Below, piece by piece: positions 2,049 to 64,000 of a DNA stretch of 64,000 nt. The stretch spans positions 86,767 through 150,766 of the forward strand of contig CAZDGN010000001.1 of NCBI GenBank assembly GCA_964505265.1. The letters are read 5' to 3'. Position 1 is the stretch's first letter, and every line of letters starts with the position of its first letter. The DNA comes from an uncultured Rickettsia sp. GTDB taxonomy: Bacteria > Pseudomonadota > Alphaproteobacteria > Rickettsiales > UBA1997. Both the position numbers and the translations under genes were made by a program. Under the pieces are notes generated by a model. That model saw only the letters and a program-made list of their open reading frames with translations, made no database searches and had not been told where the DNA came from.

Positions 2049-4688
2049 ATGCAAGAGATAATTTCAAATTACAACCACCAATCGACTGAAAAAAAATGGC
2101 AAAATGAATGGGCGAAAACTGAAGTTTTTAAATTTCGCAACGATTCTCTTGCTCCAAAATTTTATGCTCTTGAAATGTTTCCATATCCTTCTGGAAAAAT
2201 TCATATGGGGCACTTGCGTAACTATACAATTGGCGATGTCGTTGCTAGATTTAAAAAACTTAAAGGCTTCGATGTTCTTCATCCAATGGGCTTTGATGCT
2301 TTTGGTTTGCCAGCGGAAAATGCCGCCTTACAACATAAAATTCATCCAGAAAATTGGACGCTTTCGAATATTGAAAATATGCGTCAAGAGCTCAAATCGA
2401 TTGGTTTGTCAATTGATTGGAAGCGTGAAATTATAACATGTATGCCCAATTATTACAAGCATGAGCAAAAAATTTTTTTGGATTTTCTTGATAAGGGTTT
2501 GGCATATCAAAAAGAATCTTTTGTAAATTGGGATCCGATTGATCAAACTGTGTTGGCTAATGAGCAAGTAATTGATGGAAGAGGTTGGAGAAGTGGAGCT
2601 TTAGTTGAAAAAAAGAAATTAAAACAATGGTTTTTAAAGGTCTCAGAATTTTCTGAAGATTTGTTGTCAGAGCTTCAAAATTTAAAAGGCTGGGATGATA
2701 GAGTGCTTTCAATGCAAGAAAAATGGATTGGAAAAAGTTCTGGTTTACTTATTGATTTTGAGATAAAATCAGCTCCACAATATCTTTCGAAAAAATTGCT
2801 TGAAACGGGAATTAAAGTATATACGACCAGACCAGATACACTATTTGGAGCTTCATTTATAGCTATTTCCGCCCACCATCCTCTGGCCTTAGAAATTGCA
2901 AATCACGATAAAGAAATAAAAAAATTTATTGATGAATGTAATAAAAATGCAGTGGATGAACAAACTCTAGAAAAGCAAGAGAAAAAGGGTGTTAAAACCA
3001 AAATTATCGTTAAAAATCCTATTGACGAAGAGTCAGAATTAAGTGTTTTTATTGCAAATTTTGTTTTAATGGAATATGGTACGGGTGCAATATTTGGATG
3101 CCCTGCTCATGATATTAGAGATTTTGAATTTGCAAAAAAATATCAACTAAAAATTTTACCAGTTGTCACTCCTTTTGATGAAAAAAATCAAGAAATTCCT
3201 TATTTAGAGGACGGAATAATGATTAATTCAAAATTTCTTGATGGTTTAAAAAATCATGAGGCAAAAGAAGAGGTATATAAATTTTTAAAATCTAAAAATA
3301 TCGCCGAAAAGAAAATTAATTATCGACTCCGTGATTGGGGGGTTTCGAGACAGAGATATTGGGGCTGTCCAATTCCAATTTTATATCTTGAAGATGGAAG
3401 AATTGTCAAGGTTCCAGAAAGCCAACTTCCGGTTGAATTGCCAAAAGATGTTGATTTCACTGGACTTGGCAATCCGCTAGAAAATCATCCAACATGGAAA
3501 TATACTTCTTATCAAGATGTTGATGGAAAAATTTATAAAGCCACCAGAGAAACCGATACTTTTGATACTTTTTTTGAAAGTTCTTGGTATTTTTTACGCT
3601 ATATTTCATTGGAAAATGACAAAGCTTTTGATAAGGATTTAGTTGATAAGATACTTCCGGTTGATCAATATATTGGTGGGGTTGAGCATGCGGTATTGCA
3701 TTTACTATATTCAAGATTTTTTGTTAAAGCTCTTAAAAAATGTGGATATTTATCGGTTAATGAGCCCTTTAAAAATCTATTAACTCAGGGAATGGTTTGT
3801 CATCATACTTTCAAAGACGAAGGTGGAAATTGGGTGTATCCAAGTGAGGCGATTGAATTGCAGAAAGATGTTTTTATTCACGAAAAAACTCGCGAAAAAT
3901 TAATCAAGGGTCGATATGAAAAGATGAGTAAATCGAAGAAAAATGTTGTAGAGCCGATAAATATTGTGCAAAGCTATGGGGCGGATACCGCAAGATTATT
4001 TATGCTTTCAGATACACCAGCTTCGAGAGATTTAGATTGGTCAGAAAGCGGTATTGACGGGGCTTGGCGCTATATAAATAGATTGTGGAAATTGGCTAAA
4101 AATTTTAGCAATATTACCAAAGGTAAATCATTTAATAGGCAAGCCGATTTTGTCAATTATGAAATTTTTAATAAATCACAACTGGAATTGTTAAAATTAA
4201 ATCATAAGACAATTTTTTACATTGACGATGAATTAAATAGACTTAGTTTTAATAGGGCAATTGCTAAGATTCGTGAATTCACCAATTTTCTTGAAAAATA
4301 TCAATTAAAAAAATTTGAAGAAAATAATTTAGAGATAAATAATGATTATGAATTGTTTTATTTTTCTTTAAAAAATTTGGCAATTTTACTCTCCCCAATT
4401 ACTCCGCATTTGGCAGAAGAAATATGGTTTGAATTAGAAAATCAAGGTTTGGTATGTGCTGCAAATTTTCCAAACTTTGATGAAAATTTTTTGAAAGAAG
4501 ATAAAGTTTCGATAGCTGTTCAGGTTTCTGGAAAGTTGCGCGCCGTAATTCAATTAACTAAGGATTGTTCGGAAAATGAAGTTAAGGAAACTGCTCTTAA
4601 ACAAGAAAATGTTCAAAAATTTTTATCTAATCAGGTGATTAAAAAAATAATTTTTGTTCCAAACAAATTACTAAATATCGTAATTTAA
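2049..4688 (+). CDS. leuS: Leucyl-tRNA synthetase
   Basis: 879 aa with the HIGH-type motif [15 protein letters not shown] and the KMSKS motif [13 protein letters not shown]1 editing insertion is present. Confidence 0.97.
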
Positions 4689-5272
4689 ACTTTTCAAAAA
4701 AAATAAAATGACAAAATAAAAGAAACCTTTTTTGATAAGAATATACCAAAAGTTTCTGTCGATTAGATATTCTTTTTAAGTTTTTTTATGGATCTCATCT
4801 AAAAATAAGAAGTCTAGTTTGTTATTTTAAATGATTTTTTTAATTAAAATGTTATTAAATAATCTCACCCAACAATCCTTTAAAAATTTTAAAAAACTTA
4901 TGATAAATCTACCAACTCAATCATTTTTGGTGTTTTATTTGGAGTGCTTTTGATAAATTATTATTTAAATATCATTTATTTGTTTTTTTTGAAAAATAAT
5001 TGATAATTATCAAGGTAATATATTCTATTTTTGAAACATTTTTAAAATTTAATAAAAATATAAGAAAATAATGAAGATGATTAAATAAAAATTTATAATA
5101 TTTATTTTAATAAATAAAAAAATTTTTTTTATTACACAATTTTGTTATCAAATAAATAATTATTAAAAATATATAAATCTAAAATAAAAATATTATTTTA
5201 ATTATTTTAATCGAATAAGTTTATTTGATTTGAAAAGCTATACTTAAATTTTTTTAAAAATAAAAATAAAAT

Positions 5273-6529
5273 ATGAAAAAACATAATATAAAAAATAATT
5301 TTTTTCCAAAAATACTATTTGGTCTGAAAATCAATATTTTGCTAATAGCTAATTCATATGCTGGCGGATATTCTTCTTCCCTATACTCAACATCTGGACT
5401 TGGAACGGCATATAGCGGTTCAGCTACTGGTTCACATGATATAAGTGATGTGTTTTTTAACCCTGCAATAACGGCTGGAAATAATAAATCTGAAATTATT
5501 TTGTCTGGTAGCTTATTAAATCTATCAATCGATCCCGATTTTATGAATTCAAATTTTGTTCCAGCTGGAACTGAAACGAGAAATGTTGGTACTAAAAAAC
5601 TAATTCCATCCTTGTATGCTTCAACCCCGATTAATCAAGACATTAATTTAAATTTTGCTATAACCACTCCTTTTGGTCTAGAAACCAGATACAACAGAAA
5701 CTGGGCTGGAAAATATCGTGCAGTTGATAGCTCTATTTCTACTATTAATTTTAACCCGTCTTTAGCCTTTAAAATTAATGACAAGCTTTCTTTTGGAGCT
5801 GGATTAGTTGCTCAGCATTATGAAGCTGAACTTACTAAAAAAGCCATATTAAATGCCAATCCTCTTGTTGAAGGATACGGAAGATTAAAAGGTAATGATT
5901 GGGGATATGGATTCAATTTTGGTGTTTTATATAAAATTTCTTCATACACCAATGTTGGAATTGGTTATCGTTCAGCCATTAAACATAATTTAAAGGGTAT
6001 TGCCAGTGTCAACGATAATTTGATGGTATCGAAATTTAAATCTAATACCACCACTCCTGAATCTTTAACTATTGGGGCTTCTCATAATTTAACCAATGAT
6101 TTGCAAATTTTATCAGACATTACTATAGCTAGATGGTCTCGCCTAAAATCTTTGAGAGTGACCACTAATAATCCACTCCTTGATTCAACTTCAAAATATA
6201 ATTGGAATAACTCAGTTTTATATTCGGTTGGTTCAAATTACAAAATTAGTAATAAAGATATATTTAGATTTGGTTTGGCTTATGAAAAAGACGCTGTTAA
6301 TGATAGAAACCGCGAGCCTACAGTTCCAAATGGCGATAAATATTGGATAACGGCGGGTTTAAATCATAAATTTGAAAATAATTTAGAGATTGATTTTACT
6401 TATGCTTACCAAAAATATAAAGCTAATAATATTAACATTAAGGAAATAGGAAATAATCAAGGAACCTTGGTTGGAAAATATCAGCTTAGAGCGGATGTTA
6501 TTTCCTTAGCAATTAAGAAGCAATTTTAG
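5273..6529 (+). CDS. FadL/OmpP1/TodX-family outer-membrane channel for hydrophobic compounds
   Basis: Signal peptide, then the family N-terminal hatch motif YSTSGLGTAYSGSATGSHDISDVFFNPAI. Alternating beta-strand pattern throughout, with a C-terminal aromatic residue (…KKQF). Confidence 0.8.
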   Translation: MKKHNIKNNFFPKILFGLKINILLIANSYAGGYSSSLYSTSGLGTAYSGSATGSHDISDVFFNPAITAGNNKSEIILSGSLLNLSIDPDFMNSNFVPAGTETRNVGTKKLIPSLYASTPINQDINLNFAITTPFGLETRYNRNWAGKYRAVDSSISTINFNPSLAFKINDKLSFGAGLVAQHYEAELTKKAILNANPLVEGYGRLKGNDWGYGFNFGVLYKISSYTNVGIGYRSAIKHNLKGIASVNDNLMVSKFKSNTTTPESLTIGASHNLTNDLQILSDITIARWSRLKSLRVTTNNPLLDSTSKYNWNNSVLYSVGSNYKISNKDIFRFGLAYEKDAVNDRNREPTVPNGDKYWITAGLNHKFENNLEIDFTYAYQKYKANNINIKEIGNNQGTLVGKYQLRADVISLAIKKQF

Positions 6530-56434: not shown

Positions 56435-56991
56435 AGACTTTACCTTTAGTTTTAGCACCCGATCCATTTTTAAAAAAAATTTCTCAAGCAGTCGATAAAA
56501 TCGATGATAGCCTCAAAGAATTTCTAAAACAAATGGTGCAAACTATGTATCATGAGGGTGGGGTTGGTCTTGCTGGAGTTCAGGTTGGATTTTTAAAAAG
56601 AGTTTTAGTAATGGATGTTGATTATGAAATTTCTCATCATCACCACCATGATGATGAAGAAATTGAATGCAAAGATTTTGAAATTATCAATCCAAATCCA
56701 CAATATTTTATTAATCCAGAAATAATTGAGTCCTCATCTGAAAAATCCAGCTTCAATGAGGGTTGTTTGTCATTTCCTGGTGCTAGAGCTGAAGTGATTC
56801 GCCCCGAAGCAATAACTGTAAAATTTCTTGACATCAATGGGCAAGAACAGGTAAAAAGATATGATGGAATTTCTGCAACTTGTATTCAACATGAGATTGA
56901 TCATTTAAATGGCATAACTTTTGTTGATAGAATATCGCCTTTAAAAAAAGAAGTAATTCTTAAAAAAATAAAAAAACGCAAAAATGGCTAA
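56431..56991 (+). CDS. def: Peptide deformylase
   Basis: Contains GVGLAGVQVG, EGCLSFPG and QHEIDHLNG. A His5/acidic insertion lies between motifs 1 and 2. Confidence 0.92.
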   Translation: MKTLPLVLAPDPFLKKISQAVDKIDDSLKEFLKQMVQTMYHEGGVGLAGVQVGFLKRVLVMDVDYEISHHHHHDDEEIECKDFEIINPNPQYFINPEIIESSSEKSSFNEGCLSFPGARAEVIRPEAITVKFLDINGQEQVKRYDGISATCIQHEIDHLNGITFVDRISPLKKEVILKKIKKRKNG

Positions 56992-58180
56992 TTTCAGATA
57001 TAGAGCAATTAATCAGGAAGGTAAGTATATAACTGGCAAAATCTCAGCTGAAAATCCTTCGGATTTAATGTCGCTATTGAAATCTAGCTCTCTTGAATTG
57101 GTATCGTTTCGTGAAGAAAAAAATAATTTTGCAAATTTACTGGGTGGTTTAAAAAGTAGCGAACTTATTACTATTTTTATTCACCTTGAACAGCTTGATA
57201 GAGCTGGTGTATCGATTATTGATTCAATTCAAGATTTAAAAGAAACCTCGGATTCCAATAAAGTTAAAAACTTAATGCAAGAAATATACGAGTCGATTAA
57301 AAATGGTAATTTATTTTCCGAAAGTCTTGCTAAAAGACCTGATATTTTTAAATCAACCTATGTTGGTTTAATTGCTATGGGAGAAAAAACTGGTAATTTA
57401 TCTAACTCTTTTACAAATATTATTGAAGATATTAAGTGGAATATTGAAATTCGAAGAAAAACCAGAAAAGCAATTATGGGTCCTTTATTTGGTCTTTCAT
57501 TGATGTTTTTAGTGCTTGGAGTTATGACTGCAGTGGTGGTTCCAAAGGTAACGGGTTTCTTATCTGCACAAAGTATTGATTTACCTTTTATTACTGTGGC
57601 CTTGGTTAATTTTTCTAATTTTGTACAAGGAAATTGGGCAAGTATTTTATTGCTTCCACCTCTAATTTATGGTTTAATTAAAGTTTTAGAAAGGCTTCCG
57701 GCTACTCAAATTAAAGTCGATTATTTTAAGTTAAAAATTCCAGTTTTTGGTGGAATTATAACTAAAATTGAATCAGCCAAATTTTGTCAGTTTTTTGCAA
57801 TGACTTTTAAAAGCGGTCTGGGTGTGCTTGAGTGCCTTGATTCTTCAAGTGTTGCCCTTAAGAATAAGGCAATTAAAAATGCAATTAGTTTTGTGCGTCA
57901 ACAAGTTTCAGATGGACAATCATTATCGGGTTCTATTTCGGCAACAAAATTTTTTCCAAACTTGGTGGTAAGGATGTTTAAAGTTGGTGAGGAAAGCGGT
58001 AATATGGAAAGCTCATTGAAGAATATTAAATATTTCTACGACAAAGAAATCAACGACTCAATTGATAGAATTGTTGGATTAATTCAACCAACTATTACAG
58101 TTATTATGGGTGGAATGATCGCATGGATTGCGGTGGCGGTCTTTGGTCCAATTTACAGCACATTCTCGAATTTACAATAA
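56984..58180 (+). CDS. pilC: Type II secretion / type IV pilus platform protein (GspF/PilC family)
   Basis: 398 aa with two T2SS-F repeats (…LEQLDRAGVSIIDSIQ… and …MTFKSGLGVLECLD…) and 3 TM segments. Confidence 0.82.
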   Translation: MANFRYRAINQEGKYITGKISAENPSDLMSLLKSSSLELVSFREEKNNFANLLGGLKSSELITIFIHLEQLDRAGVSIIDSIQDLKETSDSNKVKNLMQEIYESIKNGNLFSESLAKRPDIFKSTYVGLIAMGEKTGNLSNSFTNIIEDIKWNIEIRRKTRKAIMGPLFGLSLMFLVLGVMTAVVVPKVTGFLSAQSIDLPFITVALVNFSNFVQGNWASILLLPPLIYGLIKVLERLPATQIKVDYFKLKIPVFGGIITKIESAKFCQFFAMTFKSGLGVLECLDSSSVALKNKAIKNAISFVRQQVSDGQSLSGSISATKFFPNLVVRMFKVGEESGNMESSLKNIKYFYDKEINDSIDRIVGLIQPTITVIMGGMIAWIAVAVFGPIYSTFSNLQ

Positions 58181-61211: not shown

Positions 61212-62072
61212 TTAATTTAATTTTAAAATATAAAAATTTGATTCCACTGCTTGTCTTAATTCTTTATACCAATTTTTTTCATTTGCCGAGGTGTGGTCGA
61301 CAACTTGGACAAAAAAACGACATTGATTTTTTTTTCCATAATCAAGCAAGGATTTGGTTTGCCCCTTCATTTCCTTTGGCTGAAGAGGATTGCCAAAGGA
61401 AATATTGATATTTAAATCAGCTTGGTCTTGTGCTCGATTCGGTATATTATTATTAAAAATTACAATACCATCATCACGCAAATAAACATTAAAAATATAT
61501 TCAGGGGAGCCATTTGCCTTAGCCCAACAAGGTGGAAAGCCTATGCCTTTGACTTTACGTATAAGGTGCAAATTTTGCCCCTCCAAATTGTTAATTTTTT
61601 TGGATAATGAAATTTTTTCATTGAGCAATTCTTTAAGTTCATTTTCTAACTTCATTTCTTTGGTAAGAACTGGCGCAACTGGCATAGCAAGCGGATTTTC
61701 AAGTTCCTTAACCTCGCTTTCTTGAATTTCTTTTTCCAAATCTTCGCGCATTTTTTGTAATAATTGATCTAAATTTACCTCTTCCTTGTCTGGTAGTTTA
61801 TTTCGTTTCTCCACTAATTTTTTTATTTCTGGAAGTTTTTCAAGACCTTCAACAAGCTCCTGTGTAAGTGGTTGCTCTTTTTTTTCAATAAAATTTACCA
61901 GCCTTTCAATACTCTCTTCATTTTTCTTATATTTTTCGACTTTTCTTTGTTCTTTTTTGATGAAAAATGAAAATGCTAACAATAAAACAAAAATAATCAT
62001 GATGGTTATTTCCGACATCGTCAGCCCCATAATTAAGCCTTTGCGATAGCTTTTATTGTCGGCATTAGACAT
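61212..62072 (-). CDS. Single-TM protein with an ExbD/TolR/MotB-like acidic TM helix, an E/K-rich coiled coil and an unassigned C-terminal domain
   Basis: The TM helix is GLTMSEITIMIIFVLLLAF (compare the INVTPFIDVMLVLLIIF type). An E/K-rich helical region of about 120 aa follows. The C-terminal domain contains GFPPCWAKANGSPEYIF and has no OmpA/PG-binding motif. The start lies 2 nt after the upstream stop. Confidence 0.55.
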   Translation of the reverse strand: MSNADNKSYRKGLIMGLTMSEITIMIIFVLLLAFSFFIKKEQRKVEKYKKNEESIERLVNFIEKKEQPLTQELVEGLEKLPEIKKLVEKRNKLPDKEEVNLDQLLQKMREDLEKEIQESEVKELENPLAMPVAPVLTKEMKLENELKELLNEKISLSKKINNLEGQNLHLIRKVKGIGFPPCWAKANGSPEYIFNVYLRDDGIVIFNNNIPNRAQDQADLNINISFGNPLQPKEMKGQTKSLLDYGKKNQCRFFVQVVDHTSANEKNWYKELRQAVESNFYILKLN

Positions 62073-62074
62073 AA

Positions 62075-62860
62075 TTAATTATTTTGATTAGTGTTAAATT
62101 GATTTTTTTGGTCAATAATTTTTGCCAAATTCGAAAGACTTTGCGAAATTTCTTGAGTTGAGGTTTGAATTTTATTGATGCTTTCTTCAAGTTTGGCGAT
62201 AATTACTTCATTTTGTTCTAAAATTAATTTAGAGCTTTGTGAAAATTGTTCAGAATTATTGATCAAATTTTTTGCCAAATTTTCGCGCACATCTTGGAAC
62301 GATTCTTGAACTGAATTTTTAAGTGAGCGAGTGTAGCTGTTGAAAGAAATTGAAGATTTATAAAGCTCATTAACTAACTTATTTGAAGTTTCGGCAACTT
62401 TATTTTGCGCACTTTTTTCAATATCATCACTATCACGATAAAGCTGGGCAAAAAATACTCGAATAGCGATGCCAAAAATTGTTGACCATAAAGCTACACC
62501 AAAGCTTCCGATGATATTCATAATTTCGAATTCTGATTCTTTGGAGAAAGCATATAAGGCATAAGAAAGACTCGATAGGGTATATAAAAACCCGAGATAA
62601 TAGCTATTATCGCCAATTTGATCTTCACGAATATGGAATAATCGATTGCGATAGGCTAAAAAAGCATAGTAAATAATTAATGAAACCGATGTGAAAGTTA
62701 TATATGCTTGTTCAATCTTGAAATGCTTAGAAAGCCAGATAAAACAAAAACCAAAAATGGCAAAAAATATAAAGAAATATCTTGGAATTTTGCTGATTGT
62801 TTGTTTAGTGATTTCGCCGTTATTCATTTTAGCCCTCAATTGGTAAAAATCTTGATACAT
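62075..62860 (-). CDS. 4-TM MotA/ExbB/TolQ-like protein with a C-terminal coiled-coil tail of about 110 aa
   Basis: YYLGFLYTLSSLSYALYAF…GSFGVALWSTIFGIAIRVFFAQL resembles the ExbB/MotA channel helices (VGLFGTVWGIMNSF…GIAEALLATAIGLVAAIP). The tail reads NKVAETSNKLVNELYKSS…LEESINKIQTSTQEI. An alternative ATG at 62827 lies 1 nt after the upstream stop. Confidence 0.55.
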   Translation of the reverse strand: MYQDFYQLRAKMNNGEITKQTISKIPRYFFIFFAIFGFCFIWLSKHFKIEQAYITFTSVSLIIYYAFLAYRNRLFHIREDQIGDNSYYLGFLYTLSSLSYALYAFSKESEFEIMNIIGSFGVALWSTIFGIAIRVFFAQLYRDSDDIEKSAQNKVAETSNKLVNELYKSSISFNSYTRSLKNSVQESFQDVRENLAKNLINNSEQFSQSSKLILEQNEVIIAKLEESINKIQTSTQEISQSLSNLAKIIDQKNQFNTNQNN

Positions 62861-63650
62861 TAGCCCCTTGCGAAGAAAAAAACTCCATCCAAAAATCCCT
62901 TAATTGAGGAGTTTGGATTTTTCCAGTGTTTTCGCGATGCAAGAAAAATAATTCAACATCAACATTTTCAAGATCGGATTTTACATGTTTATAATGCTCG
63001 GAGTCTTTGTATTGAGAAAAATTATAGTTGCTTTTATAGGCAGAAAATTTTGGGGTATTTTGCAATAAATCAGTCACCAAAATTAATTTTTTGTTGATAG
63101 CTTTATTGTTCAGAGGAATGAAAGAGGTAATGGCAACCGATTGAATAGATTCCATAATTGGTGATTGATTTAGCGAGTCGCGATTTAAAACATTATCTAA
63201 AATTATATCGAGATTTTTTTTGAATTTTTCCTCATATCTTTTTTGAATAATTTTTTTATTTTCGGTAAGCTGATTAGCATCTTCGGCATTTCCTGGGTTG
63301 CATAAATCAATCGATGGTTCCAAAATTTTATCGATGATTTTATCGACAGAATATATTTGAATTTTGTGAGTATTTTTTTCGAGATTATTGGCAATTTCCC
63401 AAAATCGAGTTTTTAGCGATGCCTTTTGAATTAAGGATAATTTGTCGGTGGCATCGATAATTATTACGGTTAATTTTTTTAAATTATTTGCACAAAAATT
63501 CTCTTTATTAATGGCCGATGATTTAGTTTGTTCTTTGCTAAAAGAAATAGTAAAAAATCCGATTATAATTCCTGCCATTGCAATTAGGGCTATAGCGGTT
63601 AGGTTGCCTTTTGAACCACCATTTTTATTGTTCATTTGTTGGTATCTCAT
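62829..63650 (-). CDS. N-terminally TM-anchored protein with a vWA-like (degenerate MIDAS) domain
   Basis: The TM helix is LTAIALIAMAGIIIGFFTI. It is followed by LTVIIIDATDKLS…SPIMESI…KKLILVTDLLQN, which is the beta-strand/Asp pattern of vWA folds. The assignment is tentative. Confidence 0.45.
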   Translation of the reverse strand: MRYQQMNNKNGGSKGNLTAIALIAMAGIIIGFFTISFSKEQTKSSAINKENFCANNLKKLTVIIIDATDKLSLIQKASLKTRFWEIANNLEKNTHKIQIYSVDKIIDKILEPSIDLCNPGNAEDANQLTENKKIIQKRYEEKFKKNLDIILDNVLNRDSLNQSPIMESIQSVAITSFIPLNNKAINKKLILVTDLLQNTPKFSAYKSNYNFSQYKDSEHYKHVKSDLENVDVELFFLHRENTGKIQTPQLRDFWMEFFSSQGANVSRFLPIEG

Positions 63651-63651
63651 A

Positions 63652-64000
63652 TTAAAAACTTAGTTGATATTTCTCGGTTGTTGAGCCGTAAAAATTGTTA
63701 ATATTTTCGCACAATTTTTTATATTCAATCGATGAAGAATCTAGGTCGTTTTTAAAAACCTGCAAAATACTTTCCATATCTAAACCGAGCGTTTCCAGTT
63801 GTTTTTTTTCGATGGTATATTTTGGAGCATCTTGCAATTGACGATAAAATTTTAGCAAATAATTCAACACTTCTTCAAGATGATTTAAATGTTGAGGCAA
63901 TAGCTTTAACCACTTTTTTTCGCGGTTATAAATGCTTTGCAATTCATCAAAACGATAGCGAATTTTTTCAAATTCAACGGTAATTACTTCAATTTTTTTA
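63652..64000 (-). CDS. Helical/coiled-coil hypothetical protein, 5'-truncated by the window edge
   Basis: Hand translation shows the frame stays open from 64000: KKIEVITVEFEKIRYRFDELQSIYNREKKWLK…. The track start at 63942 is only an internal TTG. The stop lies 1 nt before the next gene's start. Confidence 0.6.
   Translation of the reverse strand, partial: KKIEVITVEFEKIRYRFDELQSIYNREKKWLKLLPQHLNHLEEVLNYLLKFYRQLQDAPKYTIEKKQLETLGLDMESILQVFKNDLDSSSIEYKKLCENINNFYGSTTEKYQLSF

Follow-up and report, generated by a model that had tools for sequence, protein, structure and literature searches.

A conserved four-gene membrane cassette with a probable MotA/ExbB-type subunit, a MotB-like partner and a vWA-fold protein in Proteobacteria and Bdellovibrionota

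What might an operon of four membrane proteins, two of which resemble the subunits of ion-driven motors, do for the bacteria that carry it? The question is raised by the right-hand end of a 64,000-nt stretch of DNA from an uncultured Rickettsia sp. (contig CAZDGN010000001.1, positions 86,767 to 150,766), the whole of which we refer to as the window. Four minus-strand open reading frames (ORFs), here called g1 to g4, are packed closely together there: g1 (63652-64000), of which only the C-terminal 116 codons are present, in a frame open to the window edge; g2 (62829-63650, 273 residues), encoding a membrane-anchored protein whose fold is of the von Willebrand factor A (vWA) type; g3 (62075-62860, 261 residues), a MotA/TolQ/ExbB/ZorA-like subunit; and g4 (61212-62072, 286 residues), a MotB-like subunit with a short N-terminus, one transmembrane helix, a Glu/Lys-rich helical linker and a C-terminal domain with two cysteines. 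This arrangement had been described in a first-pass annotation made from the sequence, and it was reproduced in its coordinates, its open right edge and its spacings (2 nt between g4 and g3, a 32-nt overlap of g3 with g2, and 1 nt between g2 and g1). No terminator-like site was found between the four genes on the minus strand.

The four genes belong together. Their order, g1-g2-g3-g4 on one strand, was the same in 87 of 87 loci, comprising 80 fetched from a scan of GTDB, the loci from a contig look-up and two plasmid loci, and the genes mostly abut or overlap; the co-occurrence survey proposed at first pass thus found a conserved order throughout. Searches with phmmer detected g1 in 83 of these loci, g2 in 87 and g4 in 85, and g4 comes after g3 wherever both are present. 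Because homologues with identities of 25-55% keep this order and strand, the four genes are real, and the data support their forming a conserved unit. For the g3 protein of the window 49 homologues were found, and a scan of GTDB species representatives (one genome per species) identified 415 loci with a g3 relative. The hosts span the Alpha- and Gammaproteobacteria, Rickettsiales included, and the Bdellovibrionota, with examples in Rhizobium, Sinorhizobium, Bradyrhizobium, Mesorhizobium, Micavibrio, Thalassospira, Methylomonas, Methylobacter and the Pseudobdellovibrionaceae.

The exact g3 sequence of the window had no record in the look-up. A 98%-identical g3 protein (P0001) is on record, encoded on a 132-kb contig, L001, and the near-identical contigs carry the labels of Rickettsiales metagenome-assembled genomes (MAGs) in GTDB. 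On L001 the operon is bordered on its upstream side by a gene for RNase H (rnhA) and by proC, and in both L001 and the window a gene for a major facilitator superfamily (MFS) transporter lies downstream of it. This contig also completes g1, whose full product could be read as 453 residues (L001:1630-2991).

Whether the cassette encodes a motor turns first on g3. In an AlphaFold2 model of the protein (pLDDT 84), helices at residues 25-46, 51-71, 79-107 and 113-142 make up the membrane region and are followed by one long helix (146-260), which bears out the earlier description of four transmembrane helices and a coiled-coil tail. On the model helices and the invariant motifs, we delimit a four-helix membrane domain at residues 25-142 (62435-62788, minus strand) and a helical, predicted cytoplasmic tail at residues 146-261 (62078-62425, minus strand). 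Two motifs in the membrane domain are invariant, IGDNxYYxGFxxTLxSL and FGxAxxxTIxG, and the corresponding stretches of the family consensus read REDQIGDNxYYLGFLxTLxSL and FGVALxSTIxGIxxRV. Residues T94, S97, S126 and T127 show little or no variation, with alignments disagreeing on their equivalence to T145 and T178 of TolQ. When the membrane domains of 17 g3 relatives were searched free of their coiled coils, 16 gave sub-threshold matches to the Pfam family MotA_ExbB, always over the last two helices, and this was the only Pfam family common to them. Among the models of PADLOC, the g3 protein of the window matched ZorA2 (E=5.2e-6) and the transmembrane region of a Methylobacter g3 did likewise (E=2.5e-4), although these matches are weak and lie partly in the coiled coil. 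A Foldseek search of 350,000 PDB chains with the monomer model placed TolQ, ExbB, ZorA and PomA in approximately 35 of the top 40 positions. Taken together, g3 is probably homologous to MotA/ExbB-type subunits; no genuine TolQ, ExbB or MotA gene was found in the fetched loci.

The tail of g3 varies in length and is where the window copy is unusual. Relatives of g3 have approximately 340-630 residues, with tails from ~115 to ~490 residues, so that the word compact, applied to the module at first pass, holds for the window lineage and not for the family. Tails of the relatives run 90-370 residues beyond the end of the window protein and finish in a conserved segment (RSRxYTExTHxSLxSMTKTLAEKLQ); compared with its closest relatives, the window protein is without the last 90-130 residues. 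The short form is itself kept in the 98%-identical contigs, and it is therefore a lineage-specific truncation of the tail, not a sequencing artefact. No correlation of tail length with the lengths of segments of g1 or g4 was found in a comparison that, with 13 distinct points, was underpowered.

The product of g4 has the architecture expected of the partner. Its one hydrophobic segment (residues 20-38 by hydropathy) falls within a transmembrane helix at approximately residues 15-38 (61959-62030, minus strand) and contains the glutamate noted at first pass, Glu21 (codon 62010-62012). This residue is a glutamate in 85 of 85 homologues and never an aspartate, in the motif G-x-[TS]-[LM]-[AS]-E, and an alignment of 28 homologues has the N-terminal motif SYRRGLxLGLTMAEIMLLLxF in common. 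Glu21 is close to the helix's N-terminal end, which is predicted to face the cytoplasm, and the aspartates of MotB, TolR and ExbD are at a similar place in a comparison made by eye, without a significant alignment. The C-terminus of the protein is dimorphic: an OmpA domain is present in 61 of the 85 loci and a different domain, which we call PPCW...CRF, in 24, the window among the latter. Because 61 of 85 relatives have an OmpA domain behind the same transmembrane helix, a MotB-like architecture of g4 is supported. The g4 of Rhizobium plasmid pRL11, for instance, matches OmpA (PF00691) with 28.7 bits, the cut-off being 27.2, and OmpA-type relatives carry the label "OmpA family protein" from the Prokaryotic Genome Annotation Pipeline (PGAP); the pRL11 protein also matches the PADLOC model ZorB1 (E=8e-6), for which the window protein has a weak match (E=0.0066).

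The PPCW...CRF domain that replaces OmpA in the window protein occupies residues 172-286 (~115 residues; 61215-61559, minus strand), and residues P9, C11, W12, G31, C80 and R81 of the domain are invariant in 14 homologues. The earlier description of a Cys-containing C-terminus that is not OmpA-like was accurate, and the domain matched no Pfam family. Its sole match among PDB sequences, bleomycin hydrolase (E=2e-4), is spurious, as the conserved cysteines are not aligned, and the idea that it resembles the periplasmic domain of TolR or ExbD was dropped after a comparison by hhalign that was not significant (P=0.41). One complete cassette with a g4 of this type (L019, CAYGIH010000004.1) comes from a contig assigned in binning to Candidatus Saccharibacteria, an odd host for a module in which relatives bear a wall anchor of Gram-negative style, and the contig may be misbinned.

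The two remaining proteins set the cassette apart from the motors that g3 and g4 recall. For g2, the first-pass suggestion of a vWA-like protein stood at the level of the fold and found no counterpart in sequence searches. In an AlphaFold2 model (pLDDT 84, pTM 0.77), the secondary-structure elements follow the order beta-alpha-beta-beta-alpha-alpha-beta-alpha-beta-alpha-beta, and Foldseek returned 115 PDB matches with E<=1e-3, the top ones all vWA or I domains, with target-normalised template-modelling scores (TM-scores) of up to 0.62 and integrin I domains, the Sec23/24 trunk, Rpn10 and a BatA-like protein in the lead. On this model the fold is clearly that of a vWA domain. Neither the g2 sequence nor a consensus query matched a Pfam family, those of vWA domains included, and there was no match in PADLOC nor, by profile, among PDB sequences. 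The invariant residues are C53, D66, D69, C117, S163, P164, Q170 and D194, and the metal-site motif is altered, reading D66-x-[TS]-D69 after strand 1 in place of the canonical DxSxS of a metal ion-dependent adhesion site (MIDAS). An Arg/Lys-rich N-terminus precedes a single transmembrane helix (approximately residues 14-42; 63525-63611, minus strand), in which no residue is conserved, and the vWA-like domain (approximately residues 53-273; 62832-63494, minus strand) begins some 10-15 residues after the helix. The domain is probably periplasmic, given the positively charged N-terminus and two invariant cysteines.

The g2 proteins form a large, coherent and unannotated family: a profile recovered 2,989 clusters at 50% identity, 2,184 of them with E<=1e-10, from 1.84 billion representative sequences, and the best 150 of the 2,989 have lengths of 210-299 residues, most being close to 270. 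A single viral contig in IMG/VR (L094, IMGVR_UViG_3300035703_002996) encodes a g2 relative, at 30% identity.

For g1, the completed sequence overturned the earlier view, formed from its C-terminal part, that it is simply a helical protein. The 453-residue protein is a polytopic membrane protein, with approximately 165 helical residues followed by about four transmembrane segments, a DDPYPGYG motif and a C-terminal coiled-coil domain, and an alignment of 22 homologues has E173, N177, G188, G191, N244 and R251 invariant in the transmembrane segments. The positive-inside pattern would place both coiled-coil domains in the cytoplasm, where the g3 tail is predicted to lie as well. No Pfam or PADLOC family matched g1. 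When g1 and g2 from three lineages were compared with PADLOC, no model matched, those of the Zorya partners included, which agrees with the first-pass statement that the vWA partner falls outside the described Zorya types. In RefSeq the proteins of the cassette are hypothetical or misnamed, g3 as a "methyl-accepting chemotaxis protein", probably on account of its coiled-coil tail, and g1 as a "DMT family transporter" (for example L093:1541-2992 and 3728-5335, and plasmid hits H15 and H18).

A clue to function comes from the genes beside the cassette. One neighbour alone recurs widely, a thermonuclease with a signal peptide (SNase, PF00565, 50 bits), which lies within ~2 kb of the cassette in 31 of the 87 loci and accompanies both subtypes of g4. 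Its position and orientation vary: its place in many loci of the Bradyrhizobium type is upstream, on the strand of the cassette, at a spacing of 0-19 bp, and in Rhizobium it is convergent and downstream (examples are L086:10070-10813, L087:11226-11918 and L005:6770-7255). Some copies bear an additional Cys-rich segment at the C-terminus (CPIKGN...IYH...WFC), and on a Sinorhizobium plasmid (L093) an excalibur calcium-binding protein (275-502) is encoded ahead of the nuclease.

Many of these neighbourhoods are mobile or related to conflict. The 22 plasmid matches comprise 10 on conjugative, 4 on mobilizable and 8 on non-mobilizable replicons, and on the rhizobial plasmids the neighbours include an ArdC-like zincin, UvrD and the thermonuclease. 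The cassette adjoins genes for DotM, a type IV coupling protein and resolvases in some cases; elsewhere it lies between insertion sequence (IS) elements, near HipA, or near a CHAT protein together with Phd/YefM and DUF4041. Near-identical cassettes in an NCBI assembly (L005:710-4884) and a Pseudobdellovibrionaceae MAG (L008) are beside DotM_C and a TraG-type coupling protein of type IVB secretion and near serine recombinases, a setting that suggests the cassette is cargo there on an integrative and conjugative element (ICE).

How might the parts work together? The cassette would encode a four-protein inner-membrane complex around a MotA/MotB-type stator unit, g3/g4, and we infer that this complex is ion-driven because the gene pair follows the pattern of a stator unit. 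By analogy with the known motors, g3 would form the outer ring of the ion channel, presumably a pentamer, with its helical tail projecting into the cytoplasm. The transmembrane helix of g4 would insert in this ring, with the invariant glutamate as the ion-binding residue, and its helical linker would reach the periplasm, where the OmpA domain of most relatives would provide an anchor to peptidoglycan and, in the window lineage, a disulfide-type domain would stand in place of that anchor. On the periplasmic surface of the membrane, g2 would present a binding or sensing domain of vWA fold with its metal-site-like motif, and g1 would supply polar membrane helices and coiled coils that meet the tail of g3. 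The module as a whole would couple ion flow to an event in the envelope and then either signal to the cytoplasm or act on the event, and with a secreted thermonuclease as partner in about one-third of loci the action may be directed at incoming foreign DNA or phage.

The reading that we favour, tentatively and at somewhat less than an even chance, is that the cassette is a MotAB-type envelope sensor or transducer, Zorya-like in its role, accessory and horizontally mobile, that acts against incoming phage or plasmid DNA. A Zorya-like role is favoured because of the mobile, accessory distribution of the cassette, the variable tail of g3 and the recurrent secreted nuclease. In a fuller and distinctly more speculative form, which we think unlikely to be right in every part, a glutamate-based 5:2 ion-driven motor of a class not yet described, a periplasmic vWA sensor and a polytopic coiled-coil partner would make up a four-component envelope alarm or effector, commonly with a periplasmic nuclease, that confers anti-phage or anti-plasmid immunity at or before DNA entry and that plasmids and ICEs have carried through the Proteobacteria and Bdellovibrionota. 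We infer the 5:2 assembly, the ion drive, the details of topology and the defence role alike.

Comparison with Zorya itself gives points on both sides. Two reports describe types I-III as ZorAB with soluble partners, either ZorC/D, ZorE or ZorF/G (PMC11946911, PMC11890865). The best PADLOC matches of g3 and g4 are ZorA and ZorB; both systems pair a MotA-like subunit that has a long cytoplasmic helical tail with a MotB-like protein that, in most cassette relatives, would bind peptidoglycan; and both are accessory, often borne on plasmids or islands, and often partnered by a nuclease. ZorA tails, too, vary in length. However, the matches of the cassette proteins are weak (E from 5e-6 to 1e-2), and ZorC, D, E, F and G are missing, their place being taken by g1 and the vWA protein g2, neither of which matches a known family. 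Where the cassette has a nuclease, it is an SNase with a signal peptide and probably periplasmic, whereas that of Zorya is a cytoplasmic effector. The transmembrane acid of the cassette is a glutamate and its motor genes come last in the order, and the window copy is short-tailed and has no OmpA domain. In literature on Zorya-like and MotAB-like systems and on the rhizobial copies, no description of the four-gene set was found.

A number of observations weigh against the reading as a Zorya-like sensor or transducer, and they concern both the motor pair and its setting. The g3 protein of the window scores 17.5 bits against MotA_ExbB (PF01618; E=0.0035, residues 81-141), under a gathering cut-off of 22.9; all 16 matches of the coiled-coil-free relatives are also below threshold (best E 0.0014), and queries with the family consensus gain nothing (15-17 bits). 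The Foldseek matches of g3 have E-values of 0.02-1 (best 0.02, program probability 0.97) and TM-scores of 0.2-0.3. Profiles of the transmembrane region had no match among PDB sequences and the full-length profile returned coiled-coil noise only; hhalign comparisons of the transmembrane profile with single E. coli TolQ, ExbB and MotA sequences were uninformative, and that with an alignment of TolQ and ExbB was not significant, the template TolQs being >82% identical and of little depth. The MotA/ExbB likeness claimed for g3 at first pass is weakly supported, by 16 of 17 membrane-domain matches and by the structural neighbours; every match is sub-threshold and no Foldseek E-value is below 0.02. 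The g3 protein of the window is also without the conserved end of the tail, its g4 had no match to OmpA (PF00691) in the Pfam search, and the acid of g4 is a glutamate where MotB, ExbD, TolR and ZorB have an aspartate. As to setting, the window cassette lies among housekeeping genes (rnhA, proC, the MFS transporter and argB) in DNA of uniform G+C (~0.30), and no nuclease adjoins it; housekeeping contexts occur in other loci too, such as a chromid of Paracoccus. The second most common neighbour of the cassette is a histidine kinase and not a defence gene, and among 2.9 million viral contigs (IMG/VR) only one locus was found.

A motor with a non-immune task is the main alternative, which we regard as unlikely. 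The motor would here act as a periplasmic force transducer or in envelope maintenance, pulling on or moving g2 and/or g1, much as Tol-Pal, Ton or Agl-Glt operate, for purposes such as wall or outer-membrane tethering, adhesion or the movement of surface proteins. The housekeeping context that the cassette has in Paracoccus and in the lineage of the window speaks for such a function, as do the retention of the cassette in a low-G+C Rickettsiales MAG and the peptidoglycan-binding OmpA domain on g4 of most relatives. The vWA fold and probable periplasmic location of g2 also point this way: inner-membrane-tethered vWA proteins were proposed in 2025 as motor-driven force transducers (PMC12204202), and g2, like them, is a one-helix vWA-fold protein encoded beside a TolQ/MotA-like motor gene. 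The published transducers have either a TonB-like helix with SHLS/His, joined to a linker of great length, or an aspartate-bearing transpore helix that replaces TolR (PMC12204202). In g2, by contrast, a linker long enough to cross the periplasm is missing, the vWA domain starting ~10-15 residues past the transmembrane helix, and this helix contains neither a conserved His/SHLS nor a conserved Asp; moreover, the cassette always adds a separate MotB-like g4 and g1. Clustering of the genes that lie up to 3.5 kb from the cassette yielded no conserved outer-membrane partner family, and force transduction leaves the recurrent SNase, the plasmid and ICE locations and the long, variable tail of g3 unexplained.

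It is also conceivable, although in our judgement improbable, that there is no motor at all. The likeness of g3 would then be one generic to helical-hairpin membrane proteins, and the cassette would encode a static membrane complex that serves as a scaffold or in signalling, such as a set of coiled-coil organisers of the membrane fixed by an OmpA anchor. The matches of g3 to MotA_ExbB and ZorA, all below curated cut-offs and in some PADLOC cases located in the coiled coil, would fit this explanation, as would the negative PDB profile and hhalign searches, the low Foldseek TM-scores and the glutamate of g4 in place of the canonical aspartate. A generic resemblance is difficult to reconcile with the match of 16 of 17 coiled-coil-free membrane domains to the same family over the same two helices, and with structural neighbours that, among 350,000 chains, are almost exclusively A subunits of 5:2 motors. 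It would likewise have to account for the plan of g4, which is exactly that of MotB (short N-terminus, one transmembrane helix with an invariant acid near its N-terminal end, linker, OmpA), and for g3 and g4 abutting or overlapping in every locus.

The wider comparison with motor proteins bears on the same issue. As in MotAB/PomAB and TolQR/ExbBD, the genes for the A and B subunits are adjacent, the last two helices of g3 resemble the channel helices, and g4 has a single transmembrane helix with the acid near the N-terminal end, followed in the relatives by OmpA as in MotB; among the structural neighbours of g3, TolQ and ExbB rank highest. The cassette differs from these systems in that g3 is below the Pfam threshold and has no counterpart to the large cytoplasmic loop of MotA/ExbB, and g4 has Glu for Asp. 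GldLM/PorLM are likewise non-flagellar motors of the 5:2 type, and a membrane glutamate is important in them. Their topology and periplasmic partner are different, there are no type IX secretion system (T9SS) genes near the cassette, and GldL and GldM were not among the top 50 Foldseek matches of g3 listed.

The mobile contexts invite a further explanation, which we consider improbable: that the cassette is an accessory of conjugative elements, a complex in the envelope that helps or controls the transfer of DNA through entry exclusion, stabilisation of mating pairs, or degradation of undesired DNA in the periplasm with the plasmid-type "nuc" thermonuclease. It draws on the DotM_C and TraG-type coupling protein genes beside the cassette in L005 and L008, on the 10 conjugative and 4 mobilizable replicons among the 22 plasmid matches, on the ArdC-like zincin and thermonuclease of the rhizobial plasmids, and on the SNase adjacent in 31 of 87 loci. 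A dedicated conjugation function sits poorly with the 8 of 22 plasmid matches on non-mobilizable replicons, and conjugation genes are absent from around the operon on the Rickettsiales contig L001. The clustering of genes within 3.5 kb produced no type IV secretion system (T4SS) family, nor any tolA, tolB, pal or tonB family, and no flagellar genes are near the cassette in L001 or in that set. The idea that the operon is a diverged tolQRA is ruled out, as the first-pass annotation had anticipated in setting it apart from Tol-Pal, because the extended contig L001 has rnhA and proC upstream and no tolA, tolB or pal around the operon.

Elsewhere in the window, a gene for a PilC/GspF-type platform protein (T2SSF, 56984-58180) lies amid housekeeping genes, with def/fmt to one side and bioD/argB to the other, and no further pilus or secretion genes were found in the examined part of the window.

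What would the cassette add to the known ion-driven motors? Annotation pipelines call g1 and g2 hypothetical or misname them because no family model exists for either. The scale is considerable, with at least 415 species-level genomes that carry g3 and approximately 2,200 clusters of g2 at 50% identity. The function is directly testable because the cassette is present in tractable organisms, including Rhizobium johnstonii 3841 (plasmid pRL11, cassette genes RL_RS31080-31095 and thermonuclease RL_RS31100), Sinorhizobium, Bradyrhizobium and Methylomonas. To our knowledge, MotAB-type ion-driven motors have few functions, namely in flagella, Ton, Tol, gliding/T9SS and Zorya. These would be joined by a large and diverse family in which the motor, with a non-canonical glutamate, would have new partners in a membrane-anchored and probably periplasmic vWA protein, a polytopic protein that fits no known class and, often, a nuclease that is secreted.

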